From positions 3,360,001 to 3,392,000 of the forward strand of contig CP091279.1 of the NCBI GenBank assembly GCA_021650915.1: 32,000 bases of DNA, in the 5' to 3' direction. Under the pieces are notes generated by a model, which did not search any database, was not told the origin of the DNA, and worked only from the letters and a program-made list of their open reading frames with translations. This stretch comes from Candidatus Brocadia sp. (GTDB lineage Bacteria; Planctomycetota; Brocadiia; Brocadiales; Brocadiaceae). Each line of letters opens with the position of its first letter. The stretch's first letter is position 1. Below, one piece after another: positions 12,870 through 32,000 of this stretch. The position numbers were made by a program, and so were the translations under genes.

Positions 12870-14785
12870 CAAAAATCCATATCTCTTAGCTGGTAGGAAG
12901 GAGGCGAATCGCCTCCAACCCCCAATCGTCGCCAGATACTTTGGACAACGTGACAAAGTATCCTTTTAAACCATACGGCTTTCCCGTAGTTAGCGACCCC
13001 ATAGTGTTGCTCTGGAGCAGAGAAAAGTAACCTATCATGCCTTTGCACGTGCCTTAAGAAATTCTCTTTCAAATGAGAGTAACCCCATCTTAAAGAATCG
13101 GTGTACCGGGAAACGTTTGTTGTCAGTTTTCCATTTTCTCGAAAACTTGAAACTTCTCAGTCTCATGCGTACCCAGCAGTCTAACGAGCGATATACCGTT
13201 TGTACATTGCCCAGCCGAAAATAGTTGACATGTCCCCTTATGACAGGATTTAATGTATCAATGACGGCTTGCAGGTTGACGCCTTGTGTGCGTTTGGTGA
13301 TGTCTCTGACGGCGTCCTTGAGTTTGTCCAGGGATTTCATGCTTACACCCTTGTTCTTGCCCATGAAATTATATCCGAGAAACCGGAAGCCTCGTTTGAA
13401 GTTGGTGAGCCTGGTTTTATCCTCGCTCAGCTTCATTTCAAGTTTCCCTTCGATGATTTCTTTGACGTACTGAAGGGCGGCAGGGAGTTCTTCTTTCGTT
13501 TTAGTCATGACAACGAAGTCATCGGCATAGCGGACAAATTTATATCCTGCCTTTTCAAGCTCCTTGTCGATGATGTCACCGATAAGGTTTGCAAGCAAGG
13601 GAGATATGACGCCTCCTTGCGGAGTGCCTTGATTTGTCTCATGCACGATGCCGTCCTCCATGACCCCTGCCTTGAGCATGTTCTCGATACTGTTCAACAC
13701 CCATCCGTCAGCGATTTTCTCACGCAAGGAGTTCATGATAAGCTTATGAGGTATGGTGTCATAGAACGCCTTTATATCGGCGTCCAAAATGTTCCGATAC
13801 CCTTGCTGCTTATACTGTTCAATCCGTTTGATAGCATCATGACAGCATCTGTTTGGACGAAATCCAAAGCTGTTATCCGAGAATTCTTTCTCGAATATTG
13901 GCTCTATGATTTGTCTGAACGCTTGCTGTACTACCCTGTCCTTGACAATGGGAATGCCAAGAGGTCTCTTGTCATGCCTGCCTTTGGGAATGTAGACCCT
14001 TAAGACGGGCGCAGGGTTGTATATGGCGGTTTTCAGTTCCTTGTGAACAGCTTGTAGATTATTCTCAAGGTCACTTTCAAACTGCTTAATACTTACCCTG
14101 TCGAGACCAGCCTTGCCTTTATTCTTCTTTACGTGCCCAAAAGCCGCATAAAGGTTTCTCAGACTGAATACCTTGTCTCTTAAAGAATGATACTTAAGCA
14201 TCTCCCGATATGTTCCTTTTGATTGATTCCGGATAATAGACTTGTCAATCGTGTTTCCTGAGTCGAGATTCCTCCTGACAGAGGCAAAACAAGAGAGGCT
14301 CTTGCTACTACTTGCCCATGCAAAGAGTCTCTTTTCTCATGGAACGTATTCAATCTACCACGTTTCATCAACTCCACTACGGTTATGCCCCTTCATTCCT
14401 GGCTTACACCAGAAACTATTATGAGCGCTGCTGACGACTTCAAAGACAGACCTGTGAGAGCCAGTCGTCCGTCACCATCTCATACAGCTTGGATTTCGGA
14501 TTTCCCTTATACCTCGCTGTTAGGGAATTTCTTCCCAAGACGTAAGTCCTCCCCCGGTCATATGGATTACCCCTTTTCCCTTCGTGATGTATGTTCAAAC
14601 GCATTATCCAGAGATGTTTTCACCTGGTCTCTTTTGACATCTCCAACAAGGACATTGTCAGTGCTTCACTGAGAAAGGGCAGTTGGCACGAACTAACACG
14701 CCATACTCATACACCCCAAAAGGTCGTCTGTACCTCGTAACTCCGTCATACCCCTCACGGGAATACGCTATCCTTCTACGCACAC
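12870..14785 (-). mobile_element. Group II intron (about 1.9 kb, boundaries approximate) in an intergenic site
   Basis: An RT/maturase ORF lies inside. On the minus strand, GUGUGCG at 14785-14779 fits the 5' GUGYG consensus (start at 14785 or 14783). It is followed by a CCC-GUGA-GGG GNRA hairpin about 580 nt upstream of the ORF start, the usual D1-D3 length. A domain V-like 'AGCCGUAUGG' string lies at 12980-12971, about 55 nt after the ORF stop. I could not fold D5/D6 cleanly, so the 3' end is only placed between 12870 and 12930. Confidence 0.7.
13035..14201 (-). CDS. Group II intron reverse transcriptase/maturase (no endonuclease domain)
   Basis: 388 aa. RT blocks are 'RPLGIPIVKDRVVQQA', 'FGFRPNRCCHDA', 'ILDADIKAFYDTIPH', 'GTPQGGVISPLLAN' and 'YADDFVV'. 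The maturase X region reads 'LNPVIRGHVNYF'. The ORF ends without an HNH domain. Confidence 0.92.
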   Translation of the reverse strand: MLKYHSLRDKVFSLRNLYAAFGHVKKNKGKAGLDRVSIKQFESDLENNLQAVHKELKTAIYNPAPVLRVYIPKGRHDKRPLGIPIVKDRVVQQAFRQIIEPIFEKEFSDNSFGFRPNRCCHDAIKRIEQYKQQGYRNILDADIKAFYDTIPHKLIMNSLREKIADGWVLNSIENMLKAGVMEDGIVHETNQGTPQGGVISPLLANLIGDIIDKELEKAGYKFVRYADDFVVMTKTKEELPAALQYVKEIIEGKLEMKLSEDKTRLTNFKRGFRFLGYNFMGKNKGVSMKSLDKLKDAVRDITKRTQGVNLQAVIDTLNPVIRGHVNYFRLGNVQTVYRSLDCWVRMRLRSFKFSRKWKTDNKRFPVHRFFKMGLLSFEREFLKARAKA

Positions 14786-15012
14786 GGATTGCTCCTTTGT
14801 ATACGCATAGGTACAAACTTCTCTACGAGGATTTAGGCTCGCAGAGGTGATATTTTCAACCACTTAGGTATCCCATACTTCAAGGCACGCCCATTGCTCA
14901 ACACGGAGCGCAAAACAACATCTCCCCCTGCTTCCATCGTCCATGAGTGAAAGTTTTAGGGTGTAAAAACTTGCCAGGGTAATTTGCCAATTGTGAAATT
15001 ATGAATAAAATT

Positions 15013-18363: not shown

Positions 18364-19083
18364 ATGAGAGTCGATGATCGCTTGTCTGATGAGTTGCGCC
18401 TTTTCAGTATCACCAGACATTTTACCAAATACGCGCCAGGGTCCGTGCTTATTCAAACCGGCAACACGAAAGTCATCTGCACGGCTTCGATAGAAGAAAG
18501 TGTGCCGCCCCATATCAAAAATACCGGTGAAGGCTGGATTACGGCGGAATATTCCCTTCTGCCAAGCTCTACGCCGGTAAGAGCTCCGCGGGAATCCACC
18601 AGAGGAAAGGTGGGGGGGAGAACGCATGAAATACAGAGGCTCATTGGCCGCTCACTGCGCTCCATTATGGATCTTGCCTTGCTGAAAGAGCGGACGATCT
18701 GGATTGACTGCGATGTGATCCAGGCGGACGGAGGGACGCGCACTGCGGCTATTACCGGCAGTTACATAGCGCTCATGGACGCTGTCCGTTGGCTGAAGAG
18801 TAAGGACATGATCAGGGAAAATCCGGTTATAAATAGTGTCGCGGCAGTAAGTGTTGGGGTCGTGAATGACGCCGTTTTGTTAGATCTCTGCTACGCAGAA
18901 GATGCCGCTGCCCAGGTAGACATGAACGTGGTGATGACGGGCGATGGCAAATTCATCGAATTACAAGGCACAGGAGAAGAGTACGCCTTTGATGACGGAC
19001 AACTGGCGGAGATGCTGAAGATGGCAAAAAAGGGCATTTGGGAAATAATTGAAATCCAGAAGAAGGCATTGGAAACCGCGTAA
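18364..19083 (+). CDS. rph: Ribonuclease PH
   Basis: 239 aa. It carries 'GSVLIQTGNTKVICTAS', 'GWITAEYSLLPSST..R..RE' and 'DCDVIQADGGTRTA'. It starts 4 nt after argF. Confidence 0.92.
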   Translation: MRVDDRLSDELRLFSITRHFTKYAPGSVLIQTGNTKVICTASIEESVPPHIKNTGEGWITAEYSLLPSSTPVRAPRESTRGKVGGRTHEIQRLIGRSLRSIMDLALLKERTIWIDCDVIQADGGTRTAAITGSYIALMDAVRWLKSKDMIRENPVINSVAAVSVGVVNDAVLLDLCYAEDAAAQVDMNVVMTGDGKFIELQGTGEEYAFDDGQLAEMLKMAKKGIWEIIEIQKKALETA

Positions 19084-19344
19084 CAGATGTTAAAGATTTT
19101 CGCTTTCCAACTCCCCCATTCCAATTTTTAAAAAGGGGATGGAAAGTTGAGTAGGGTGGATGAAGCGAAGCGCATCCACCATTGAGGAGGGCGTGGAATG
19201 GTGGACTTCGTCGTGAGATCAGTCGAACAATTCAGCGCAAAAGACGGCGTCTTAATCCACCCAGGCTAACCAACAAATCGCAGAACCAATTTATAGAACG
19301 TTAATTCAAAGGATAGAATTCGTTTTGCAAACAGGAGAAGAGAG

Positions 19345-19977
19345 ATGACTTCATTCGTAAATACGCTGCATGCAAAAACCATTTTAATTGCCACACAAAA
19401 TGAAAAAAAGAGGGCGGAGATAAAGGAGATTCTTAAAGACGTCCCCGGTATTCGGCTCAGAGGCCCCGAAGATTTTCCCTTTTTACCGCTGGTAGAAGAG
19501 GATGGAACTACCTTTCAGGAAAATGCCGTGAAAAAGGCAATTCCTCTGGCAAAGGCCTGTAACACATGGGCAATGGCAGATGATTCTGGGCTTGAAATCG
19601 ATGCACTGGGTGGGCGGCCTGGCGTCTATTCATGCAGATATGCAGGCGCTAATGCGACCGATGAAAAGAATAGAGAAAAGGTATTGTCGGAATTAAGGGG
19701 AGTGCCCAGGGAGCGGCGTACGGCTGGCTTTGTTTGCGCTATTGCCCTTGCCGGTCCACAGGGATTGTTCTTTGTTGTTGAAGGTCGTTGCGAGGGATTT
19801 ATTACTGAAGAACCGAAAGGGAAATACGGTTTTGGATACGATTCCATTTTTTATGCGCCTGATCACCGCCAGACCTTTGCAGAGTTAAATCCTGCAATCA
19901 AAAACAGGATCAGCCATCGCGCTCATGCCTTGATGCAGTTTAAGGAAAAAATAGAACCACTGATCCGGAGACGGTAG
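19345..19977 (+). CDS. rdgB: RdgB/HAM1-family non-canonical purine NTP pyrophosphatase
   Basis: It carries 'ILIATQNEKKRAEI', 'ADDSGLEIDAL.GRPGVYS.RY', 'FGYDSIF' and 'NRISHRA'. The rph-rdgB pairing is a common arrangement. Confidence 0.88.
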   Translation: MTSFVNTLHAKTILIATQNEKKRAEIKEILKDVPGIRLRGPEDFPFLPLVEEDGTTFQENAVKKAIPLAKACNTWAMADDSGLEIDALGGRPGVYSCRYAGANATDEKNREKVLSELRGVPRERRTAGFVCAIALAGPQGLFFVVEGRCEGFITEEPKGKYGFGYDSIFYAPDHRQTFAELNPAIKNRISHRAHALMQFKEKIEPLIRRR

Positions 19978-20492
19978 GGTATTGCCTGGTTCTGCAGAAT
20001 TCGGAAGTCGGAATTCAGGATGAAAATGAAACCGATTCACGCCACCTGGTTGCCCCGACTCCTGATTCCGCCGGCGCCGTTCTGATTCCTCAAACCTGCA
20101 AGGAATGAGGCGTGAACAGCATATATTCGGCATCTTCAGTCTATGTTTCCCCGCAGGTTGTATGACGGCGTCCAAGGCCTCTTCAAATTTCCCGGAGACT
20201 TCTTTGTAAACATCCGGCGCTTTTATGCCCTTCAGGTGCATCTGATATGTAAGATAAGATAAGATAGAACGCGCCGCCGATGACGGCAACTCCCTGTGCC
20301 CCTGGTTGACGTGCCTCGGAAAATGCAGTTTTGGTTGGTACTACGGTGGCAGAAACTTCTTCATTGCATCTCAATTCCTTACAAGAATCCCTGGCGTGAC
20401 ATTACAGCAAAAATTTATACCTCCCCGGGCAACAGAGGCATTGCCGGTAAGCATCTCCCGTATCCATGCTGCAAGTATTTTCCTCTCAAGCC

Positions 20493-21302
20493 CTAAATTT
20501 CGAATAAATTCCCCTGTCCCACGTTATCTAAATTGCCCTGATCCATGACCAATGGGTAGTGCAACATCCAGCTCGTAAATATCCCCAGAATGATCGATAT
20601 TACAAAGCTGATCATGGTGCCGATTAATATGTATTCTGCTTCCTTCCGGCCTTTCAGTGTCCGGGTTTCACCAAATCGCAGGATGGATTTTGCGGCGATC
20701 AGGAACCCAATGGCCTCAAAGTGGTTGAGCAGAATAAAGGTCAGAATCAAGACCCGTTCCAGGCGCCCAATCCATAGTCCGGCCTTCTCCAGGCCCTGGA
20801 AAGGGGTTTCTTTGGTTATTTCACTCCGCCATGGTTTGGTAATTTTGCCGATCAGGGCGCCGGCCGGCCAAATTACCAGAATATAGGCCAGTATGACGGT
20901 CCAAAACCGTACGCTTGATGTAAAGGTGAACAGAAATAAAACAATATCCGATAACGTGCCAGGGATCAATAATATCCAGCAACCTAAGATGATAATACCA
21001 TGTCCCAGGTGATCCAGCGCGAAAAATCGGGCGGTATCTTCTCCCTGAGGCTTTAATGCGTCCCGTAAAACGTGTGCAATAAAAATAACAAACGGGAGCC
21101 ACAGGGCATTCCAGATGCCTGCAAGGGTATAGGCGAGCGCCCCGGCGCATATCCCGTGCAGATAGAGCCAGCAAGACCGCCATGTATTCCCTGGCCACTG
21201 CTCCATTTTGGAATCCTGTTGCAGGAAAAAGTCTGCAACCACGTGGGCCACGACAAGACGGAGGAGCAACGATATATCGCTTTGACTCAACGGATGGTAC
21301 AT
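20493..21302 (-). CDS. DUF3307-family (SatE-like) polytopic membrane protein
   Basis: 269 aa. The N-terminal 'LLLRLVVAHVVADFFLQ' is the DUF3307 signature, and there are multiple TM segments with conserved His residues. The start ATG overlaps the SatD-like stop (TAATG). Confidence 0.65.
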   Translation of the reverse strand: MYHPLSQSDISLLLRLVVAHVVADFFLQQDSKMEQWPGNTWRSCWLYLHGICAGALAYTLAGIWNALWLPFVIFIAHVLRDALKPQGEDTARFFALDHLGHGIIILGCWILLIPGTLSDIVLFLFTFTSSVRFWTVILAYILVIWPAGALIGKITKPWRSEITKETPFQGLEKAGLWIGRLERVLILTFILLNHFEAIGFLIAAKSILRFGETRTLKGRKEAEYILIGTMISFVISIILGIFTSWMLHYPLVMDQGNLDNVGQGNLFEI

Positions 21303-22009
21303 TATAAGCTCCTGTACTTATTTTTATCCATTATAAGCCTCTGTGCTTCCTTTTCCCGGATTACCTGTTCATATCGCTGGCACCACTTCTCGATAGCCCA
21401 GCTACCGGCGCTTTTTAAGCGTTGACGGACCGCTGGCTGGGAAACGCCGAATTCCCTGGCAGCCTTTTCCTGGGTTAAACCCCTGATCCGGCCAAGTATT
21501 GCCTGTGCCTGTTCGCCGGACAACCGGCTTATCAGGGCATCGAGCAGGGCGCATGCTGCGTCCAGTTCTCCATCAACCTCTTGCCACGGAGTCCTTATTA
21601 ACAGTCGCTGGTCGCCCTTCATCTCATCTAAGGTCTGCCCGGAGCGGCGAAAAGCCTCGCCGTCCCCTTCAGATCCACGGCTGGCAGGAAGAAAGTCGAT
21701 GCGCCCAATCCCCACGGCAATCCGTGCATCCAGTGCATGGCGGCGTTGTTTTGTTTCAAAACCGTGGCGCAGACTGGTGCGGATGGCGATTGCTACCCGT
21801 AGCGCTGCATCCGGCCTGGATAGCACCCCCTGAAAACTATCTCCACGGTGAATTTCAAAGGGTGCGCGTATTCCATCAGGCAGGAGATTTTTAATGGTAG
21901 TAAACGAAGATTTGAGAACCAACAATAAACATCTCCGCTGGCTGGTCGTGAGTTTTGATGATCCGACGATGTCTCCGGTTACAACCGCATACAGAGCGTT
22001 CTTTCTCAT
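21302..22009 (-). CDS. SatD-like protein: N-terminal cyclase-like/palm-like domain + C-terminal sigma-70 region-4-type HTH
   Basis: 235 aa. The N-terminus reads 'YAVVTGDIVGSSKL', '..HRGDSFQGV..' and 'ARIAVGIGRI'. The C-terminus reads 'GLTQEKAAREFGVSQPAVRQRLKSAG' (HTH). The family assignment is from memory of SatD (Streptococcus mutans sat operon) features. Confidence 0.6.
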   Translation of the reverse strand: MRKNALYAVVTGDIVGSSKLTTSQRRCLLLVLKSSFTTIKNLLPDGIRAPFEIHRGDSFQGVLSRPDAALRVAIAIRTSLRHGFETKQRRHALDARIAVGIGRIDFLPASRGSEGDGEAFRRSGQTLDEMKGDQRLLIRTPWQEVDGELDAACALLDALISRLSGEQAQAILGRIRGLTQEKAAREFGVSQPAVRQRLKSAGSWAIEKWCQRYEQVIREKEAQRLIMDKNKYRSL

Positions 22010-22066
22010 GCCCTTCTTCTCCGTGTGTTTTTGAAATAATAAGGCTGCATCATGATATGCACAGTA

Positions 22067-22086
22067 TATAAGCCTTAGGGCTTATA
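22067..22086. promoter_or_regulatory. Perfect palindrome TATAAGCC-N4-GGCTTATA inside a putative promoter of the SatD-like operon
   Basis: On the minus strand the sequence reads TTGCTT-(16/18 nt containing the palindrome)-TATATA/TATACT, 58-77 nt upstream of the SatD-like ATG at 22009. Confidence 0.4.
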
Positions 22087-22287
22087 AAGCAAGAGAATAC
22101 TGGCACAGGGCGGCAAAGATCCGGATAAATCGCCCGCAAAGGGATCTTTTGTAAAACCGGGGTTTGAAGAGAAGCGATATCCGCGAAAAATGGGTAAAAA
22201 TACTTGAGACGACACGCACCAAATTCGGGGCACATGTTTACGCGGTTACCCGCGGTACGCGTGCGCTTTTATTTCGGCGACACGGCG

Positions 22288-23691
22288 CTATGTCTGGTCG
22301 TTGGCGGAAGGCGTAGTTTTGGCTATGTTGTGTTTGATAAGCTTGTTTTGAAGGGTTGTGCGGGGAATCCGCAGGATTTCTGACATCCGCACCTGGTTTC
22401 CCTGCGTCTTCTGATATGCCCACAGAAGGAGCTTTCTTTCCGCATGACTCAGCGTATCCTGCAAGTCCAGCGAGTCAATGGTGGAAAGTTCCAGGGAAAA
22501 TAAGCCCGAAGGGGTCTCTTCTTCCCGCACGTTTTCCGGGAGGTCTTTCGTCATAATCTCACCAGAGGTGCAAAATGCGATTGCATGTTCCATCGCATTT
22601 TCCAATTCACGGATATTTCCCGGCCAGTGATACCGTGACAACAGCCAAAGCGCTTCCTGAGATACCGAGTGAACCGCGGCATGCTGCTGTGCGGCATACT
22701 TTTTCATAAAGTAATTTACGAGGAGCGGTATATCTTCTTTCCTTTCCCGCAAAGGCGGGAGGTGGATAATGACCACGTGGAGCCGGTAATAGAGATCCTC
22801 GCGAAAGCGTCTCTCCCGGACAAGTTTTTTCAGGTCCCTTTTGGTAGCGCAGATGACGCGGACGTTGACGGCGATAGCCTCCTCCCCACCAACGCGTTCA
22901 AATTCCCTTTCCTGAAGAACCCTGAGCAGTTTAACCTGCATTTCCAGGGGGATGTCATCTACGTCGTCAAGAAATATCGTTCCCCCGTTGGCGAGTTCAA
23001 AACGGCCACGCCTCATCTTTATCGCACTGGTAAAAGCGCCTTTCTCGTGTCCGAAAAGCTCGCTTTCCAGAATTTCCTTGTTCAGGGCAGCGCAACTGAG
23101 TTTGATAAAAGGGCTGTCTTTTCGCGGGCTGTTGTAATGAATCGCCCCAGCCGTAAGCTCCTTTCCGGTGCCGCTTTCCCCCTGAATAAGCACCGTAGTA
23201 TCACGATGGGACACGATGTTTATCATTTCAAACACGTGTTTCATTGCGTCGCACTTTCCAATCATATTGTCGTAGCCGTACTGGCTGAGGATCTGCTGTT
23301 TCAGCAAGAGATTTTCCGCAACCACGTCCTTGTGTCTGAGCGCCTTCTGGAGTTTGATTATCAACTCTTCCAGAGAAAAGGGTTTTGTTACGTAGTCGTA
23401 AGCCCCTTCTTTCATCGCCATAACTGCATTTTCAATGGAACCATAGGCGGTCATAATGATAACTACGGTATCAGGAGACGATTTTTTAATCTCCTTCAGA
23501 AACTCTATGCCATCCATCTTCGGCAGGCGCAGGTCGGTTATTACGGCATCGAAGTTTTCCGATTGCATGACCCTGAGGCCTTCGATGGCATTTGACAGGG
23601 AAGTGACCGTATATCCCTCTCTTCTTAACTTATCCTCAAGGGATACCCGCATCAGTTTTTCGTCATCGACAATAAGGATGTTGTTTTTCAT
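22288..23691 (-). CDS. Sigma-54-dependent response regulator (NtrC family: REC + AAA+ + Fis-type HTH)
   Basis: REC domain: 'ILIVDDE', 'DAVITDLRLPKMDG'. AAA+ domain: 'GESGTGKE' Walker A, 'GAFTSA' (GAFTGA variant) and 'GGTIFLDDVDD'. The C-terminal HTH reads 'RMSEILRIPRTTLQNKL'. I prefer the ATG at 23691 (MKNNILIVDD), which forms an ATGA overlap with the kinase stop. Confidence 0.9.
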   Translation of the reverse strand: MKNNILIVDDEKLMRVSLEDKLRREGYTVTSLSNAIEGLRVMQSENFDAVITDLRLPKMDGIEFLKEIKKSSPDTVVIIMTAYGSIENAVMAMKEGAYDYVTKPFSLEELIIKLQKALRHKDVVAENLLLKQQILSQYGYDNMIGKCDAMKHVFEMINIVSHRDTTVLIQGESGTGKELTAGAIHYNSPRKDSPFIKLSCAALNKEILESELFGHEKGAFTSAIKMRRGRFELANGGTIFLDDVDDIPLEMQVKLLRVLQEREFERVGGEEAIAVNVRVICATKRDLKKLVRERRFREDLYYRLHVVIIHLPPLRERKEDIPLLVNYFMKKYAAQQHAAVHSVSQEALWLLSRYHWPGNIRELENAMEHAIAFCTSGEIMTKDLPENVREEETPSGLFSLELSTIDSLDLQDTLSHAERKLLLWAYQKTQGNQVRMSEILRIPRTTLQNKLIKHNIAKTTPSANDQT

Positions 23692-25616
23692 GTTTGATCG
23701 GGAAGGCATATCGTGAAGGTCGTTCCTTCACCGACCTCGCTTTCTATAGTAATGCTGCCGTGATGGTCCTCGATGATCCTCTTTGAGATGGCCAATCCCA
23801 TCCCAAGCCCTTTTTCTCCCATGTTGTTCTTCGTGCTAAAAAAAGGTTCAAAAATCTTTTCCTTAATTTCAGGCTGAATACCGCAACCCGTGTCGCTGAT
23901 ATGAACCGTTACGCATCCTTCATGTTGCTTGCAAATATCCGTCTTTATGGTCAGGGCGCCACCATCCGGCATACTCTCAAGGGCATTTACCATGAGGTTG
24001 ATGAACACCATGGACACGTGGTCTGCATCCACCAAAACAGGCGGCAGGGACGGGTTGAGTTCCTTATGAATGCTTACGTGGCAGGGTTCCGTTTTGTGCT
24101 CAATAAATTCAAGGGAACTGATGATGATCGCATTCGCATCGTTTTCTGCTATCCGAAGGGTGTAGGGACGGGAAAACGTCAGAAGGCGCTTGACGATCAT
24201 CTCAACTCGTTTCAAACCGTCCAGCATAAGCGTGGCGTACTTCTTTGTTTGCAGGGCGTTTCCCGGTTCATTTTCAAGCATGCTTGCAAAGTTTTGCAGG
24301 CCACCTAACGGGTTATTGATTTCGTGAGCCACTTCGGCTGCAAGCTCTCCGACTGCGGCAAGACGCTCTGCCCGTAACAATTGCGTGGTGCGCTCCTCCA
24401 CCTTTTGTTCCAGATTGGTGTAGGATTCCTTCAGTTTCTCCGTCATATGATTAAATTCTCTGGCAAGCAGACCCACTTCATTATCTGAGGCAACCGAGAT
24501 CCGATGGTCAAGATTTCCCGAAGCGATAGCCTTTGCTCCCTGCGCCAGTTGTAAAATCGGTTGCGTGATCCGGCTGGTGAGTGAAATACCCATGGCAATG
24601 ACAATAAGGAGACTAACGAAGATCAGGAGGATAACGCGGCGCTTGAGTTTTTCAACGGGTGCAAACGCCTCCTTCATGTCCTGCTTTGCCACCAGCCCCC
24701 AATTGAGAACGGGGATGTGCCGGTAGGCGGAAAGCACCGGCACGTTGCGATAATCTACCGACTCCTTAATCCCCTCTTCGCCGCCGGAGCTTAATACTGA
24801 GGGAATATCTACGGCAGAGGAAAGGGGACTGACGAATTTCAGGGCAGCCCCGGGCTTGTGACGAAGATCATTGAGATAGACAAGGTTATTCCCTTCCCTC
24901 CTCGCCAGGAGAGTCTCGCCGGTCTCTCCCATTCCCGGCCAGTTACGAATCACCGGCTCGACGCTGTTCTTAACGTTCACATCCAGCAAAATGACGCCAA
25001 TGATAATATCCGTGGTTTCCAGGGTAAGGGAATCAGTCATACAAACGGGACAAAAATAGGTTATGCAGTTCTGGTCGATTAGCTCAGAGGTGTAAATATC
25101 TTTTACCGCCACATCCTTTTTTTCGAGGGTATCGATATAATCGTTAAACGAACTCAGGGTTTTCCCGACGATCCCAGGATAGGTTGATATGACCACCTCA
25201 CCGTTTGCTCCGTCGATGATCGAGATAACGTTGTAGTGCTTATACACCTGTTTCAGGAGATGGAGGTTCTCTAAAATTCTTTCATAATTCACCCGTCCGG
25301 CCTCTGATTTTCTCAACTGATCGATACTTTCAAACCTTCTCCTCTGCTGTAAAAGGGTGGTAGCCGCAGCGGCAAGTATCTTGTTGCGGGCGATTACTGA
25401 GGTATCGATCAATCGTTCGTCAAGCCAGTTGTTGAGTTCATTTTTCTTCAGATCCGCAATAGAGGTCAGTTGTTCAATCACCCGTTGTTCAATGGCATCC
25501 TTGCTGCTGTAATATTCGACCACACACACAAACAGCAAGGGAACGGTGGTCAAGAGACAGATGGAACAGATGAGCTGTATTTGAATGCTCTTGAAGATAT
25601 TTTTGTAGTACTTCAT
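23688..25616 (-). CDS. Sensor histidine kinase (TM - large extracytoplasmic Cache-like domain - TM - HAMP - HisKA - HATPase)
   Basis: 642 aa with two TM segments flanking a ~290-aa domain. HAMP reads 'ASGNLDHRISVASDNEVGLLAREFNHM', the H-box reads 'AHEINNPLGG', and the ATPase boxes are 'NLMVNALESM', 'DTGCGI' and 'GLGMGLAI'. Confidence 0.88.
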   Translation of the reverse strand: MKYYKNIFKSIQIQLICSICLLTTVPLLFVCVVEYYSSKDAIEQRVIEQLTSIADLKKNELNNWLDERLIDTSVIARNKILAAAATTLLQQRRRFESIDQLRKSEAGRVNYERILENLHLLKQVYKHYNVISIIDGANGEVVISTYPGIVGKTLSSFNDYIDTLEKKDVAVKDIYTSELIDQNCITYFCPVCMTDSLTLETTDIIIGVILLDVNVKNSVEPVIRNWPGMGETGETLLARREGNNLVYLNDLRHKPGAALKFVSPLSSAVDIPSVLSSGGEEGIKESVDYRNVPVLSAYRHIPVLNWGLVAKQDMKEAFAPVEKLKRRVILLIFVSLLIVIAMGISLTSRITQPILQLAQGAKAIASGNLDHRISVASDNEVGLLAREFNHMTEKLKESYTNLEQKVEERTTQLLRAERLAAVGELAAEVAHEINNPLGGLQNFASMLENEPGNALQTKKYATLMLDGLKRVEMIVKRLLTFSRPYTLRIAENDANAIIISSLEFIEHKTEPCHVSIHKELNPSLPPVLVDADHVSMVFINLMVNALESMPDGGALTIKTDICKQHEGCVTVHISDTGCGIQPEIKEKIFEPFFSTKNNMGEKGLGMGLAISKRIIEDHHGSITIESEVGEGTTFTICLPDQT

Positions 25617-25624
25617 AAACCGCT

Positions 25625-26041
25625 TTACTTAAGGAGCAATATGCCGCCCAGAATAAGCAACACGCCTACTGCCTTGGACAGGGTAATCTCTTCGCCCAGA
25701 AAAATCCAACCCAAAAGGAAAGAAAATACGGGATAGCAGCAGGTAACGGGGATAATCTTTGATATCTCACCTGTCTTGAGCGCCTTGTAAAATACCAGTT
25801 GTGCCACAACACCCGCCAGAATACCGGCAAGGACAAGAAAAAAAATGGCCTTGATCCCCATTTTCCCAAAAGAGGGAAACTGAGGGGTAAAAGCGATCAG
25901 AATTACGACACCCAGGAAGACGCCCGAACATCGTATCAGGTATGCGGCGGTTGGCTCAACTGATGAGAGGCCGACCTTCTCTAAAAAGGGTACAAATCCC
26001 CAGATAAAGGCCGTCAGTAAGGCAAGGAAAAACGCTTCCAT
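25625..26041 (-). CDS. Small EamA/DMT-superfamily membrane protein (single EamA domain)
   Basis: 138 aa with 4-5 hydrophobic helices and an EamA-like C-terminus 'LGEEITLSKAVGVLLILGGILLL'. It sits 8 nt upstream of the kinase gene on the same strand. Confidence 0.65.
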   Translation of the reverse strand: MEAFFLALLTAFIWGFVPFLEKVGLSSVEPTAAYLIRCSGVFLGVVILIAFTPQFPSFGKMGIKAIFFLVLAGILAGVVAQLVFYKALKTGEISKIIPVTCCYPVFSFLLGWIFLGEEITLSKAVGVLLILGGILLLK

Positions 26042-26238
26042 ACGATTGCTCCGATAAATTTTTGAGAAAATACCCTAGAGCGTTTCATTTCATAATTATA
26101 ATAAAACCGGAGAAAAAATTCTTTAACAATATTTTCATGGCCTTTGGGATGTCGTGCTGTATTGTATTCTCTATGTAGGTAACTATTCAGCGTTCTTTTG
26201 CTCACAATTACTATGAGTGAATAACATGTTGATGCTGT

Positions 26239-26397
26239 AATCCCGGAGGGATGACATGATTATAGCATATGGTCATGCAATTACGGTTAGCCTCAGAGGG
26301 GCGACATGGTATCACTCATTTCGCCATATTTCAGCCCTATGGGGTTAAATATGGCGGTGTGCCTTATCCTATAATCATGTCGTCCCTCTTCGGGATT
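26239..26397. repeat. REPIN/MITE-like composite element, copy 1 (159 bp, about 27-bp terminal inverted REPs)
   Basis: A forward REP AATCCCGGAGGGATGACATGATTATAG lies at 26239-65. A forward variant is at 26289-315, a reverse variant at 26323-46, and a reverse REP CTATAATCATGTCGTCCCTCTTCGGGATT at 26369-97. Confidence 0.8.
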
Positions 26398-26600
26398 TTT
26401 CGGTCTGTCCATTTTCCCTGTTGGCTCTTAACTATACGGAGAAGATATTCTCTGTCAATTTTTGTTGAATAGTTGCTCCTTCAGGCTTTTCAGATGCCCT
26501 GAACCGTCCTGCTCTTTCTTGATTTTACCCGTATTTTTAGGGCATTCAAGATGATTTGAGGCTTGTATGTTTTCATCAAATCTGATATGTTTTTATTACG

Positions 26601-29404
26601 ATGATTAATCAAACGCCCGAACAAATAGCGCGAGACCTTATTGACAAGCAACTCACTGCCTGCGGCTGGCTTATTCAGAAAAAGAATCAGGTTAATCTTC
26701 ACGCAGGAATTGGAGTTGCAGTTCGTGAGTATCTGACTGATGCGGGGGTAGCCGACTATGTTCTGTTTGTTGATGAGAAACCCGTTGGTGTTATTGAAGC
26801 CAAGCGTGAGGAAGAAGGACACCGCCTCACCATACATGAAATCCAATACATGAAATCCAATCCGAAGGATATGCCTCGGCAAAACTCAAATACCTGAATA
26901 ACGAAAAACTCCCCTTTGTGTATGAAAGCACAGGGGAAGTGACCCGGTTCACCGACTTCAGAGACCCCAAACCACGGTCAAGGCCGGTATTTTCCTTTCA
27001 CCGCCCGGAAACCTTTCGTGAGTGGCGGAAGAGATCAAAATCGTTCCGTGGTAGCTTGTCTGACCTACCCGCGCTGCCCGTCGAAAGACTGCGTGATTGC
27101 CAAGTTACGGCCATTAACAACCTTGAAACATCCTTCAAGGATAATCGCCCAAAGGCATTGGTTCAGATGGCAACGGGCTCCGGGAAAACCTATACCGCCA
27201 TCACGTTTATCTATCGTTTACTGAAATACACCCATGCAAAACGCATATTGTTTCTGGTTGACACCAAAAATCTGGGCGAACAGGCAGAACAGGAGTTCAT
27301 GGCGTATCAGCCAAATGATGACAACCGCAAGTTCACCGAGTTGTATGGTGTATATCGCTTGAAATCAAGCAACATTCCTACTGACAGCCAGGTTTACATC
27401 AGCACTATCCAACGTTTGTATTCCATTCTGAAAGGAACGGAACTGGAAGAAGGCGCCGAGGAAGAAAATCCGAATGAGAGAAGTTGGCAGCCGAAAGAAG
27501 TCCCGCCCGTCGAATACAATGAAAAACTGCCGGTTGAATTCTTTGATGTTGTGGTGATTGACGAATGCCACCGTAGTATTTACAACCTGTGGAAACAGGT
27601 GCTGGAATACTTTGACGTCTTCCAGGTGGGATTAACCGCAACACCTGACCAACGCACGGTGGCCTACTTTGATCAGAACCTGGTCTCGGAATATTCCCAC
27701 GAAATAGCCGTGGCCGACGGCGTGAATGTAGGTTACGATGTGTTTCTTATTGATACACGAGTCACCCAACAGGGCGCTACCTTCTGGAAAGGCGTGTATG
27801 TGGAGCACCGTGAACGATTGAACAGGAAGAAACGGCTGGAGTTGCAGGATGAGGATGAGGCATACACCGCACAGCAGTTGGACAGGGACGTGGTGAACCC
27901 GAATCAAATCCGCACGATTATTCGTACGTTCAAGGAACATTTGCCCGAAATATTTCCCGATCGCTACAATGGGGAGGGTGAATTTGAAGTGCCCAAGACA
28001 CTCATCTTTGCCAAGACCGATTCCCACGCTGACGACATCATTCAGATTGTCCGTGAGGAGTTTGCCGAAGGAAATCATTTCTGCAAAAAAGTGACTTACA
28101 AGGCAGTCGAAGACCCAAAGTCGGTGCTGGCGCAATTCCGCAACGAGTACCACCCGAGGATTGCCGTTACGGTTGACATGATTGCCACCGGCACGGATGT
28201 GAAGTCATTGGAATGTCTGCTTTTCATGCGTGACGTAAAAAGCCGGAATTATTTTGAACAGATGAAAGGCAGGGGCACACGGACCGTTCCCTTTGATGAC
28301 CTGAAAAAGGTTTCACCTTCGGCCAAATACACCAAAGACCATTTTGTGATCGTGGATGCCATCGGCGTTACCAGGAGTTTGAAAACCGACAGCCGTCCGT
28401 TGGAAAAGAAGCCCGGCGTGCCCTTAAAAGACTTGCTGGCAGCCATTGCCGTAGGCGCGCGGGAGGAAGAGTTGTTTACTTCCGTTGCCAACCGCTTGAC
28501 ACGCCTGGAAAAACAGATTACCGACAAGGAGAAAATACAATTTTCTGCAAAGGCCAACGGCAAAACCGTTACGCAGGTGGCAAAGGAATTATTGAATGCC
28601 TTCAATCCCGATACCCTGGAAGATTTACGTGCGAGGGTAGAACGCGAAAATCCCGGAGCAGCGCCCGTTGTGAAGGAAGAAAAATACAATCACCTGCAAG
28701 CTGAATTGCAGAACAACGCAGCTAAGGTATTTACCGGTGAGTTGAATGAATATATTGAAAATGTACGCAAGGCACATGAACAGAAGATTGATATGCAGAA
28801 TCCCGATACCGTAATCAATGTGGGCTGGAACAGCGACAACAAGACAAAGGCGGAAACCCTGGTGCGGGATTTTAAGGCGTGGATAGAGCAGCACAAGGAC
28901 GAAATCACTGCCTTGCAGATTTTTTATGCGCAGCCATATCGCAGGCGTGAACTCACCTACGCCATGATGAAAGAGGTGTTAGAAAGATTGAAGACTGAAA
29001 AGCCCGTCCTTGCGCCCATGCAGGTGTGGCGCGCCTATGAGCACCTGGATGCTGTAACAAGCGCAGCACGAGGCAGCCCGCGGAATGAGCTGATTGCGTT
29101 GGTCTCCCTGATCCGTAAAGTTTCAGGCGTTGACAAGACACTGACGGCTTACGACAAAACCGTGGACAAAAATTTTCAGAGCTGGGTGTTTAAGAAACAG
29201 GCAGGCGCATTGAAGTTTACGGAAGAACAGATGCAATGGTTGCGGATGATAAAAGACCACATCGCCACCAGCATCCACCTTGATGCCGACGACCTGGATT
29301 ACACACCCTTCGATGCCGCCGGTGGCAAGGGAAAGATGTATCAGCTCTTTGGCGACAGGATGAATGAGATTATTAACGAACTCAATGAGGCATTGGCGGC
29401 ATAA
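26601..29404 (+). pseudogene. hsdR: Type I restriction enzyme R subunit (EcoEI/IB-like C-terminus), frameshifted by a 14-bp tandem duplication
   Basis: The N-terminal PD-(D/E)xK nuclease ('ADYVLFVDEKPVGVIEAKRE') is in ORF 26601-26897. The helicase part ('MATGSGKTYT', 'VVIDECHRS', 'GLTATP', 'QMKGRGTR') and an EcoEI_R_C-like tail are in ORF 26918-29404. Removing one 14-bp unit joins the two frames. Confidence 0.88.
26832..26861 (+). repeat. 14-bp perfect tandem duplication (ACATGAAATCCAAT x2) causing the hsdR frameshift
   Basis: Bases 26834-26847 are identical to 26848-26861, and the identity extends 2 nt to the left. The duplication re-encodes 'IHEIQ' in the second frame. Confidence 0.95.
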
Positions 29405-29513
29405 TGATTGACAGAAATCCCGTAGCGTGATTTGGGTTTGTAACCAGCAACCAATAGTTTGTCTGCCAGCAACATCGGAAATTCAAAGTGGATAAATGTA
29501 GAGCTGGCAGTAC

Positions 29514-29760
29514 AATCCCGAAGGGATGACATGATTATAACAAGGTAAAATAAAATTGTATTTGAATCCCGGAGGGATGACACAAATCATTTCACCCCTT
29601 CGGGGTTGTGTGGTGGCGGTGGTTGGTTTTCTATAATCATTACACACCTTCGGTGTTTAATATATGCCATAAATTAAGCAGCAAAGCCCGAAGGGCTGAT
29701 ATTATTATAGGAAAACGAGAAAAAGAAAATTAATAAACCCTGAAAGGGTGATATAAATAT
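29514..29760. repeat. REP array between hsdR and hsdS: composite element copy 2 (29514-29658) plus two further REP variants
   Basis: A forward REP lies at 29514-40 and a forward variant at 29565-90. A CCCC-TTCG-GGGG hairpin is at 29595-605, and a reverse variant at 29631-58. Further forward variants are AAGCCCGAAGGGCTGATATTATTATAG at 29684-710 and AAACCCTGAAAGGGTGATATAAATAT at 29735-60. Confidence 0.8.
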
Positions 29761-31267
29761 GGTTGACAGAAAACAAATACCGCCAAGTTGGGAAGTTGTG
29801 AAACATAGTGAAATTGCAGAAATAAATCCTAAACTTCCTTTTAAAAATATTGATGACAACACCGAAGTTTCATTTCTTCCAATGAAATTAGTTGAAGAAG
29901 AAAAAAATATTTTCTATCTCACTGAATTCAGAAAATACAAGGATGTAAAAAAAGGTTTCACCCCATTTACAAATGGTGATGTGATTTTTGCAAAGATTAC
30001 GCCGTGTATGGAGAACGGAAAATGTGTCGTTCTACATGATCTTAAAAATGAAGTTGGTTTCGGTTCAACGGAGTTTCATGTTTCACGACCAAGAGAATGT
30101 GTCATCGCTAAGTACATTTTTTATTCCATTATTCAACAGCAATTCAGAAGAATTGCAGAAAGTAATATGACTGGCAGTGTAGGACAGAAAAGAGTTACAA
30201 CGCTATTTTTTTCCGAGTTTGAAATTCCTCTTCCCCCTTTCCCCGAACAACACCGCATTGTTTCCAAAATAGAAGAACTCTTCAGCGAATTAGACAAAGG
30301 CATTGAAAGTTTAAAAACCGCCCATCAGCAACTCAAAATCTACCGTCAGGCCGTGTTGAAGTGGGCTTTTGAAGGAAGGTTGACCGAGGAATGGAGAAAA
30401 GAAAACTCAATTTTAAATACAGCCTATGACTATTTAAGACAAGTATCGGAAATACGTAAGAAGAATTTTTTAGAAGCTAAGAAAAATGGTATAAAGAGGA
30501 TTGAAAAAAATTATGATTTTGAATTTAGACGAAGTGAGGAAATAAAAACTTGGGCAAATGCCACTTTGAATAAATTAATCTACATAGCGGGTAGAATAGG
30601 ATGGAGAGGTTTAACAAAAGATGAATACACAATTGAAGGCCCAATGTTTTTGAGTGTGCATTCACTTAACTATGGAAAGTATGTAGAGTTTAAAGACGCT
30701 TATCATATTTCCGAAGAAAGGTATTTAGAAAGTCCAGAGATAATGCTTAAAGAAAAAGATATATTGCTTTGTAAAGATGGTGCAGGTATTGGTAAAATTG
30801 GCATCATTAATAAACTTCCATCGGAGGCAACGGTAAATTCCTCTTTGCTTATAATAAGAGGCATGGAAATATTTATCCCGGAGTTTTTATATCATCTGCT
30901 AAGTGGACCTAAGCTACAGGGTATAGTACGAAAACGAATCACCGGAAGTGCTACTCCTCACTTATTCCAAAATGATATTAGAAAATTTGAACTTCTTATT
31001 CCTCCCCTTGAAGAACAACATCAAATTGTTTCAGAAATAGAAACCCGCCTTTCCGTATGCGATAAATTGGAAGAAACCATAACAACCGCCTTGCGGCAAG
31101 GCGATGCCCTGCGGCAGAGTATTTTAAAAAAGGCATTTGAGGGAAGGCTGGTTGAGCAAGACCCCAATGACGAACCGGCATCAAAACTCCTGGAGAGGAT
31201 AAAGGCAGACAAGGTAAAGGGTATGACAAAGGATGATACACGAAAGAAGAAAATCCCGAAGGGATGA
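29759..31267 (+). CDS. hsdS: Type I restriction-modification specificity subunit (two TRDs)
   Basis: 502 aa. The two conserved coiled-coil spacers are 'PEQHRIVSKIEELFSELDKGIESLK...LKWAFEGRL' and 'EEQHQIVSEIETRLSVCDKLEE...LKKAFEGRL'. Each follows a variable target-recognition domain. Confidence 0.9.
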   Translation: MVDRKQIPPSWEVVKHSEIAEINPKLPFKNIDDNTEVSFLPMKLVEEEKNIFYLTEFRKYKDVKKGFTPFTNGDVIFAKITPCMENGKCVVLHDLKNEVGFGSTEFHVSRPRECVIAKYIFYSIIQQQFRRIAESNMTGSVGQKRVTTLFFSEFEIPLPPFPEQHRIVSKIEELFSELDKGIESLKTAHQQLKIYRQAVLKWAFEGRLTEEWRKENSILNTAYDYLRQVSEIRKKNFLEAKKNGIKRIEKNYDFEFRRSEEIKTWANATLNKLIYIAGRIGWRGLTKDEYTIEGPMFLSVHSLNYGKYVEFKDAYHISEERYLESPEIMLKEKDILLCKDGAGIGKIGIINKLPSEATVNSSLLIIRGMEIFIPEFLYHLLSGPKLQGIVRKRITGSATPHLFQNDIRKFELLIPPLEEQHQIVSEIETRLSVCDKLEETITTALRQGDALRQSILKKAFEGRLVEQDPNDEPASKLLERIKADKVKGMTKDDTRKKKIPKG

Positions 31268-31496
31268 CATGATTATAGCATTGAAATACAAAATCAAATT
31301 TGAATCCTGAAAGGATGACATAAATAATTTCACCCCTACGGGGTTTGCGTGGTGGCGATGATTGGTTTTCTATAATAATCACACCCCTTTGGGGTTAAAA
31401 AACAATCGCGTGCCGATGTACTATGATAATGCCATCCCTTCGGGATTAAAAAACATTGGCTGAACAATAAAATCCAGAAGGGAAATATGATTATAG
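31252..31496. repeat. REP array between hsdS and the transposase gene: composite element copy 3 (31252-31396) plus two more REPs
   Basis: An exact forward REP lies at 31252-78 and contains the hsdS stop codon. A forward variant is at 31303-28 and a reverse variant at 31370-96. A reverse REP CTATGATAATGCCATCCCTTCGGGATT is at 31421-47, and a forward REP at 31471-96 runs into the transposase RBS. Confidence 0.8.
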
Positions 31497-31506
31497 GAGG
31501 AATACT

Positions 31507-31968
31507 ATGGCAGGCACATTTTCACAAGTTTACATTCAAGTTGTCTTCACGGTAAAAGGATGGGAAAATCTCATTGGTAAGGAGTGGAAAGATGAATTGC
31601 ATAGATACATTGCCGGAGTCATCAAAGGTAAAGAACAAAAGCCAATCATTGTCAACGGAATGCCTGACCATATTCATGCCTTTGTCGGGTTGCGGCCAGC
31701 TATGGCTATTTCCGATTTGGTCCGTGATATCAAAAACAATTCATCCAATTTTATCAATGAGAATAAATTAGTGAAAGGGAAATTTTCCTGGCAGGAAGGA
31801 TATGGCGTATTTTCATATTCTCATTCACACATTCAGAATGTTTACGATTACATTTTGAATCAGGAGGAACATCACCGCACGAAAACATTCAGAGAGGAAT
31901 ACATTGACTTTTTGAAGAAATTTGAAATTGAATACAATGAAAAATATTTGTTTGAGTGGATGGAGTAA
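31507..31968 (+). CDS. REP-associated tyrosine transposase (RAYT) / IS200-family Y1 HUH transposase
   Basis: 153 aa. It has the HUH motif 'PDHIHAF' and a catalytic Tyr region 'VYDYILNQEEHH', with an N-terminal 'YIQVVFTVK' strand as in IS200-like TnpA. REP hairpins flank it on both sides, and no tnpB lies between it and the window end. Confidence 0.8.
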   Translation: MAGTFSQVYIQVVFTVKGWENLIGKEWKDELHRYIAGVIKGKEQKPIIVNGMPDHIHAFVGLRPAMAISDLVRDIKNNSSNFINENKLVKGKFSWQEGYGVFSYSHSHIQNVYDYILNQEEHHRTKTFREEYIDFLKKFEIEYNEKYLFEWME

Positions 31969-31985
31969 TATTTCTCCCATGCATG

Positions 31986-32000
31986 AATCCCGAAGGGATG
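31986..32000 (+). repeat. Forward REP copy truncated by the window end
   Basis: AATCCCGAAGGGATG starts 17 nt after the transposase stop codon and is identical to the first 15 nt of the REP consensus. Confidence 0.7.

Follow-up and report, generated by a model that had tools for sequence, protein, structure and literature searches.

The locus examined here raises a simple question: is a short tandem duplication in the restriction-subunit gene hsdR of an uncultured anammox bacterium an ordinary inactivating mutation, or is it one position of a reversible switch? The duplication lies in a 32,000-nucleotide (nt) stretch of the Candidatus Brocadia sp. genome (assembly GCA_021650915.1, contig CP091279.1, positions 3,360,001 to 3,392,000 of the forward strand), hereafter the window, within a type I restriction-modification system. 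A preliminary description made from the letters alone had claimed that hsdR is split by this duplication, that deletion of one unit restores the gene, and that the lesion is very recent and potentially reversible. The feature is found to be a real, recent, and fixed frameshift pseudogene of a well-known kind, an ordinary loss-of-function mutation that gave no indication of on/off switching. Coordinates are those of the window unless a locus label is given; labels L001-L024 and P0001 etc. denote related loci and homologues that were compared with the window, and the related loci were obtained through protein look-ups. The features that carry the finding are the following.

26832-26861, plus strand: perfect tandem duplication, two 14-nt units ATACATGAAATCCA and then AT.
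26601-26897, plus strand: hsdR 5' fragment, 98 amino acids (aa), with the stop codon TGA at 26895-26897.
26840-29404, plus strand: hsdR 3' frame, open from 26840; the open reading frame (ORF) is called from GTG at 26918 to 29404, 828 aa.

The duplicated segment reads ATACATGAAATCCA ATACATGAAATCCA AT. It is 30 nt long with a perfect period of 14 (two units plus 2 nt), and it is preceded by CACC and followed by CCGAAGG. The copies claimed earlier at 26834-47 and 26848-61 describe this repeat in another phase, which is just as valid. Tandem Repeats Finder reported it as the top-scoring array in the window (period 14, 2.1 copies, 100% matches, score 60). In our own scan it was the sole complete perfect duplication with a period of at least 10 in the 32 kb, and none was found in 30 shuffles. 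This confirms that the duplication is real and beyond chance expectation. Its net effect is 14 added nucleotides, and the reading frame is shifted.

The ORF calls confirmed that the N-terminal ORF stops at 26897 and that the helicase ORF is called from 26918. The 5' fragment consists of native codons 1-82, then 16 out-of-frame codons and the TGA, and its product terminates in ...HEIQYMKSNPKDMPRQNSNT. It carries the nuclease PD-(D/E)xK residues D52 (26754-26756), E66, and K68 (26796-26804), together with Q82 (26844-26846). The 3' frame holds the second copy of Q82, Y86 (26870-26872), the superfamily 2 (SF2) motor (ResIII/DEAD and Helicase_C), and the EcoEI_R_C domain. When one unit was deleted in silico, a single 929-codon frame was obtained, reading ...TIHEIQSEGYASAKLKYLNNEKLPFVYESTGEV... 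across the junction and encoding a 929-aa protein. The restored reading agrees with that of the intact orthologues, whose DNA is exactly single-copy; one of them (P0001) shows complete identity for residues 1-208. An antisense ORF at 26490-26882 and an upstream ORF at 26269-26472 gave no family matches and were treated as non-genes.

The position of the insertion within the protein is informative. None of the 121 homologues departs from E66, A67, K68, Q82, or Y86, which belong to nuclease motif III and QxxxY; D52 is likewise invariant among the 121 in the restored reading. The duplication sits between Q82 and Y86 (codons 82-86), inside the QxxxY motif of the RecB-type nuclease domain, and in the unrepaired sequence the motif is broken. 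QxxxY has been described as part of the HsdR nuclease; mutating it slows cleavage or abolishes it, and in EcoR124I it lies in the helix just past motif III (PMC2475608). In a predicted model of the intact orthologue, residues 80-91 are likewise modelled as helical; this model is poor (pLDDT 55, pTM 0.33) and served only to read secondary structure in the N-terminal domain and to lend weak support to the fold matches. Because the 3' ORF cannot begin before residue 102, the conserved stretch of residues 83-101, which includes the invariant Y86, L91, L94, L99, and P100, is present in neither product. The frameshift also severs the nuclease domain from the helicase motor. The ORF is disrupted relative to intact close orthologues, as is required of a frameshift pseudogene.

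The identity of the gene was verified on the restored protein. Its domains are, in order, HSDR_N, ResIII/DEAD/SWI2_SNF2, Helicase_C, and EcoEI_R_C, with ResIII matching at 6e-41 and EcoEI_R_C at 6e-41 over residues 748-927. EcoEI_R_C has a role in docking to the methyltransferase. The restored reading contains PD-(D/E)xK, ExK, and QxxxY, the SF2 core, and the C-terminal domain, and the gene has hsdM and hsdS partners, which together define a type I HsdR. PADLOC matched the restored protein to type I restriction-enzyme models. The NCBIfam PRK11448 and EcoAI/FtnUII equivalog models match only under their cut-offs, and the window protein is therefore classed, from its sequence scores, as a distant member of type I HsdR. 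Its only sequence relatives in the PDB are an HsdR fragment from Vibrio vulnificus (3H1T), to which the motor aligns, and a helicase. Foldseek with the same low-confidence orthologue model ranked HsdR structures first (3H1T and EcoR124I, 2W00), which is consistent with this assignment.

The preliminary description had conceded that the duplication would be an artefact if raw reads showed only the single-copy version. At the assembly level this is not so. The duplication was located in other assemblies via a pattern match with a 14-nt gap, and it is present in at least 10 separate data sets from NCBI, JGI, and Logan. The carriers include GCA_000987375.1, JGI metagenome 2030936003, and the Logan runs SRR22026048 (a contig common to 6 samples), SRR31740696, SRR31740697, SRR33012319, and SRR12262941. 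Contigs pass through the duplication unbroken, and the carrier assemblies are identical to the window, save 1-base gaps in the oldest one. The 98-aa product equals KKO20618.1 and UJS20192.1, with exact matches in NCBI, JGI, and Logan assemblies, and the 828-aa product matches KKO20617.1 (P0007) of Candidatus Brocadia fulgida at 100% identity. No single-copy version of the allele of this lineage was found among the at least 10 assemblies. Exact-pattern scans for the junction in genome and metagenome contig collections, with and without a variable gap, returned no match. The allele is fixed throughout the data sets of the window lineage.

The oldest carrier assembly, L001 (GCA_000987375.1), was also compared with the window over 20911-31996. 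Nine 1-base gaps and zero substitutions were found. The gaps split genes, such as that of the sigma-54 response regulator (286 versus 473 aa), and they are probably homopolymer sequencing errors in that assembly.

The ancestral state was determined by comparison with a sister Brocadia sp. lineage, represented by GCA_021463075.1, GCA_029760155.1, GCA_949281365.1, and five Logan runs. The sister lineage shares the neighbourhood, with nine flanking genes in common (RNase PH, Ham1, DUF3307, SatD, a sigma-54 regulator, a kinase, EamA, hsdR, hsdS, and the Y1 transposase), and its hsdR is intact at 925 aa. In all 8 sister assemblies (L005-L012) the DNA at the site is CACCATACATGAAATCCAATCCGAAGG, which is the window sequence minus exactly one unit, with identical flanks. 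The junction reading HEIQSEGYA, which had been put forward as ancestral, is thus the one found in intact orthologues with single-copy DNA. On this comparison the single-copy form is the ancestral state and the repair proposed in silico is exactly correct. Because the sister DNA is exactly single-copy with identical flanks, the duplication must have arisen after the two lineages split.

The remainder of hsdR was then compared with the intact orthologue. Codons 1-208 are identical at the DNA level. Over the 7.8 kb upstream (18592-26425) about 25 positions differ from L005, a flank divergence of about 0.3%, and the hsdR-hsdS block (26425-30384) has 110 mismatches in 4 kb, about 9 times the upstream divergence. 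Within hsdR, 61 codons differ synonymously and 22 nonsynonymously, and one 4-codon indel is present. These differences are mostly synonymous and are clustered in blocks past codon 208, and other alleles (e.g. P0122) combine the blocks differently. The pattern indicates an exchange of functional alleles and recombinational mosaicism of the restriction-modification alleles, rather than decay. The rough ratio of nonsynonymous to synonymous rates (dN/dS) is about 0.1, and the window lineage has 2 unique residues among the 121 homologues, where intact homologues have 2-26. By these two measures, secondary degenerative changes beyond the frameshift were not found. Because the rest of the gene shows no decay, the frameshift is considered evolutionarily young. 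The earlier term "very recent lesion" therefore holds on the evolutionary scale; it does not hold in the sense of a fresh event in one sample, since the allele is fixed across the data sets of the lineage. The claim that the rest of hsdR is undamaged also stands, with one residue set aside. At codon 531 (28191-28193), proline is found in 119 of the 121 homologues (98%) and the window has serine (P531S), next to helicase motif V (TGTDVKP). It is the sole window-unique residue at a highly conserved position, the restored protein would still carry it, and it may be a second functional lesion.

The consequences for the system depend on the partner genes. These and the features between them are listed below.

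29405-29758: spacer from the hsdR stop to the hsdS start, repeat-rich, with hairpin units resembling repetitive extragenic palindromes (REP-like); not part of the lesion.
29759-31267, plus strand: hsdS, specificity subunit, 502 aa, intact.
31507-31968, plus strand: IS200-type Y1 transposase gene, between hsdS and hsdM.
L001 12440-14008, past the window end and about 4 kb downstream: hsdM, 522 aa, intact.

The gene order is hsdR, hsdS, Y1 transposase, FRG-domain gene, hsdM. The hsdM of the same lineage matches MTase_I at 3e-197 and has the motifs NPPF and DPACGTGGF. Elsewhere the window holds ordinary genes of the chromosome, among them those for arginine biosynthesis, RNase PH, an ABC transporter, and a two-component sigma-54 system. 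A megablast of the region against E. coli genomes gave no hit, and an enterobacterial origin was rejected on that ground.

These data support, with a probability of roughly 0.85, a spontaneous short tandem duplication that inactivated hsdR and left a restriction-deficient, modification-proficient (r- m+) system, young but fixed in the clone. The ancestral single unit is flanked on each side by AT, a 2-nt microhomology. Microhomology of this type on both sides is the usual signature of slippage. The most likely origin would be replication slippage between the two AT dinucleotides 14 nt apart, giving a 14-nt insertion into codons 82-86 of hsdR in the type I system of the Candidatus Brocadia fulgida lineage. 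The frameshift would cut QxxxY and part the nuclease from the motor, and functional HsdR would not be made. Because hsdR is broken while hsdS and hsdM are intact, methylation is predicted to be kept and cutting of foreign DNA to be lost. Loss of HsdR is the only route by which a type I system can be lost without self-killing. A hairpin was considered as the trigger of slippage and was rejected, as the DNA folds near the duplication are not more stable than shuffles (z -0.5 to -1.3). A promoter made by the duplication was rejected as well, since a plus-strand sigma-70-like site is absent at or near it.

Several points weigh against this reading. The slippage origin, the loss of restriction, and the retained methylation are the parts that we infer, and the last two are predictions from sequence. 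The 828-aa ORF may be expressed by reinitiation at GTG 26918, which is 21 nt past the upstream stop, and a motor without its nuclease might retain some activity. The identical assemblies may sample one widely shared enrichment clone and not independent populations. A minority subpopulation with the single copy may also be present, as consensus assemblies are blind to minor variants.

Other Brocadia lineages have unrelated changes in the orthologous or homologous system. L021 has a 1-bp deletion in hsdR (about 1000). In L022-L024, hsdM is frameshifted by an A4-to-A5 change a short way upstream of motif I (about 13306-13335 in L022, and in L023 too), seen in JGI, NCBI, and ENA assemblies. L019 (5001-6201) is a deletion remnant in which the hsdR N-terminus is joined next to an hsdM fragment. 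In Brocadia sp. UTAMX2 (L013 5839-5955), a reverse transcriptase (RT)/maturase retroelement lies in hsdR at the equivalent of window position 27464, in sense orientation, and the contig ends inside it. The insert is a 97%-identical copy of the 5' end of an element that is also present in the window.

13035-14201, minus strand: reverse transcriptase/maturase gene (RVT_1 and GIIM); the 5' end of the element is near 14891-14904.

The window element is probably a group II intron, with weak support from the Rfam intron-RNA match (E 0.89). The UTAMX2 interruption was first counted as an independent inactivation of hsdR and was then downgraded, as a sense-oriented RT/maturase insert may be a spliceable group II intron. 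Given that the locus is altered differently from one lineage to another, repeated erosion of a dispensable defence system in Brocadia is the simplest reading, and the fulgida allele represents the r- m+ form of it.

Four other explanations of the duplication were weighed. It could be the OFF state of a reversible restriction switch, in which slipped-strand loss of a unit restores hsdR often enough to be useful. Slippage deletion can act on a perfect 14+2-nt direct repeat, the loss of one unit gives the exact ancestral sequence, and the remainder of hsdR is undecayed. Reversible duplications are documented in Streptococcus pneumoniae capsule loci (PMC4243769), and phase variation has been described for type I and type III systems (PMC11868660). 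Reversibility is mechanistically plausible, as a possibility, but no finding supports it. The OFF allele alone was seen in the at least 10 data sets, with contigs unbroken at the site; ON and OFF alleles together in the lineage were not found among these assemblies, which is a weak negative because a consensus hides minor variants. The exact restored 929-aa protein had no match among about 15 billion proteins. There are two copies only, and every orthologue examined is single-copy, so the site is not a conserved contingency locus with a hypermutable tract. Other lineages lost the system via unrelated and irreversible lesions, and the window lineage carries P531S at a 98%-conserved site. A working switch is therefore considered unlikely. 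A mobile element that once inserted in hsdR and was then lost, leaving its target-site duplication as the two copies, is very unlikely. The surroundings are rich in mobile DNA (the IS200-type transposase, the REP-like repeats, and the retroelement), and a retroelement interrupts hsdR in another strain; yet no remnant of an element lies between the copies, and a 14-nt target duplication matches none of the elements present. Precise excision normally also takes out one copy of the target duplication, and IS200/IS605 elements and group II introns are not known to produce a target duplication.

Continued function of the split gene would require programmed -1 ribosomal frameshifting at 26840-26897 or an HsdR of two polypeptides. 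A -1 shift within the 58 nt that the two frames share would fuse them. On direct reading of the sequence, however, an X XXY YYZ slippery heptamer is absent in the zero frame over 26838-26897, and the orthologues are all in one frame. The fusion would add about 5 residues beside the invariant QxxxY helix, or disrupt it. Two separate products would be without the conserved residues 83-101, and a Shine-Dalgarno-like sequence is absent before GTG 26918. The probability of such function is judged to be minimal. An assembly or sequencing artefact has in its favour that errors do occur, as seen from the nine 1-base indels of the older assembly L001. The same duplication was nevertheless obtained from different runs, platforms, and pipelines (2 NCBI assemblies, JGI, and at least 5 Logan runs), the sister lineage is single-copy in 8 of 8 assemblies, and a 14-nt duplication is unlike an error of the homopolymer type. 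This effectively refutes the artefact.

A further proposal concerns the specificity subunit. The second target recognition domain (TRD2) of hsdS, at about 30385-31012, has no relation to its counterpart in the sister lineage (L005 11133-12512), while identity is 97-100% over TRD1 and the C-terminus; TRD2 and the downstream block have been replaced wholesale between the two. Because the TRD2 sequences are unrelated, the window and sister lineages should recognise different half-sites. When a cell gains a new specificity, the new sites lack methylation, and its own enzyme would attack them if HsdR were on. On this view the duplication could be a restriction-off state that let the lineage survive the change of specificity, a temporary safety catch that slippage could later re-arm. 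The link between the duplication and the TRD2 replacement is speculative, and the proposal is rated quite unlikely. The spontaneous inactivating duplication remains the preferred explanation.

Several other observations were made at the locus. The FRG-domain gene (L001 11709-12440) lies directly upstream of hsdM and matches the PADLOC candidate defence family PDC-S15 (E 2.5e-79). Only the window lineage was found to have it; in the sister, small unrelated ORFs occupy the site (L006 13290-14355), and the sister Y1 transposase is just 55% identical to that of the window. This seems to be a variable cargo slot within the restriction-modification locus. The Y1 transposase gene itself lies between hsdS and hsdM in three Brocadia lineages (the window, L005, and L022), and from this shared position it would seem to be stably resident there. 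It is enclosed by 15-nt perfect inverted arms at 31433-31447 and 31986-32000.

REP-like GC-hairpin repeats are present on both sides of hsdS, including a 148-nt direct repeat with 83% identity (29514-29660 and 31252-31399). The repeat is built of units of about 35 nt, and units are found at 29506, 29676, 29728, 31244, and 31462. A 14-nt direct repeat, ATG(A/G)TTGACAGAAA, occurs at 29404-29417 after the hsdR stop (TAATG) and at 29759-29772 at the hsdS start. Its copies bracket a 341-nt repeat-rich spacer, which suggests that the spacer was inserted between an hsdR stop and an hsdS start that once overlapped. The spacer length varies by lineage (297, 355, and 571 nt).

Comparison with known systems places the finding. 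The window HsdR shares its domain order, PD-(D/E)xK, QxxxY, and the hsdS and hsdM neighbours with the EcoAI/EcoEI-like branch; it differs in that hsdR is frameshifted and in that the order is hsdR-hsdS-(Y1 transposase, cargo)-hsdM, whereas hsdM and hsdS are usually adjacent. As in the classical r- m+ mutants, such as the E. coli K-12 hsdR laboratory strains, the R subunit alone is lost and M and S are intact, but the window allele is natural and fixed in an uncultured anammox lineage, and its r- m+ phenotype is a prediction. Reversible spontaneous tandem duplications have been described in the pneumococcal genes cap3A, cap8E, and tts (Waite et al. 2001, 2003, as cited in PMC4243769). There too, a short perfect duplication within the ORF causes a frameshift and the precise loss of one copy restores the gene. 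In pneumococcus, ON and OFF were both observed and switching between them was measured; the window lineage has shown OFF alone. Phase-variable restriction-modification genes likewise use repeat-mediated frameshifts (PMC11868660), but their tracts are long, have units of 1-5 nt, and are conserved across strains, whereas the window has two 14-nt units that are single in all relatives.

The result has consequences for annotation and for biology. GenBank lists the halves as separate genes (KKO20618.1/KKO20617.1 and UJS20192.1/UJS20193.1), and they should be annotated as one hsdR pseudogene. A new mechanism is not revealed; together with the lesions of the sister lineages, the finding indicates that this defence locus is undergoing repeated loss in Brocadia. 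The widely used Candidatus Brocadia fulgida enrichment lineage is predicted to be restriction-deficient and modification-proficient for this type I system, and this prediction is relevant to the introduction of DNA into anammox bacteria and to the interpretation of their methylomes.

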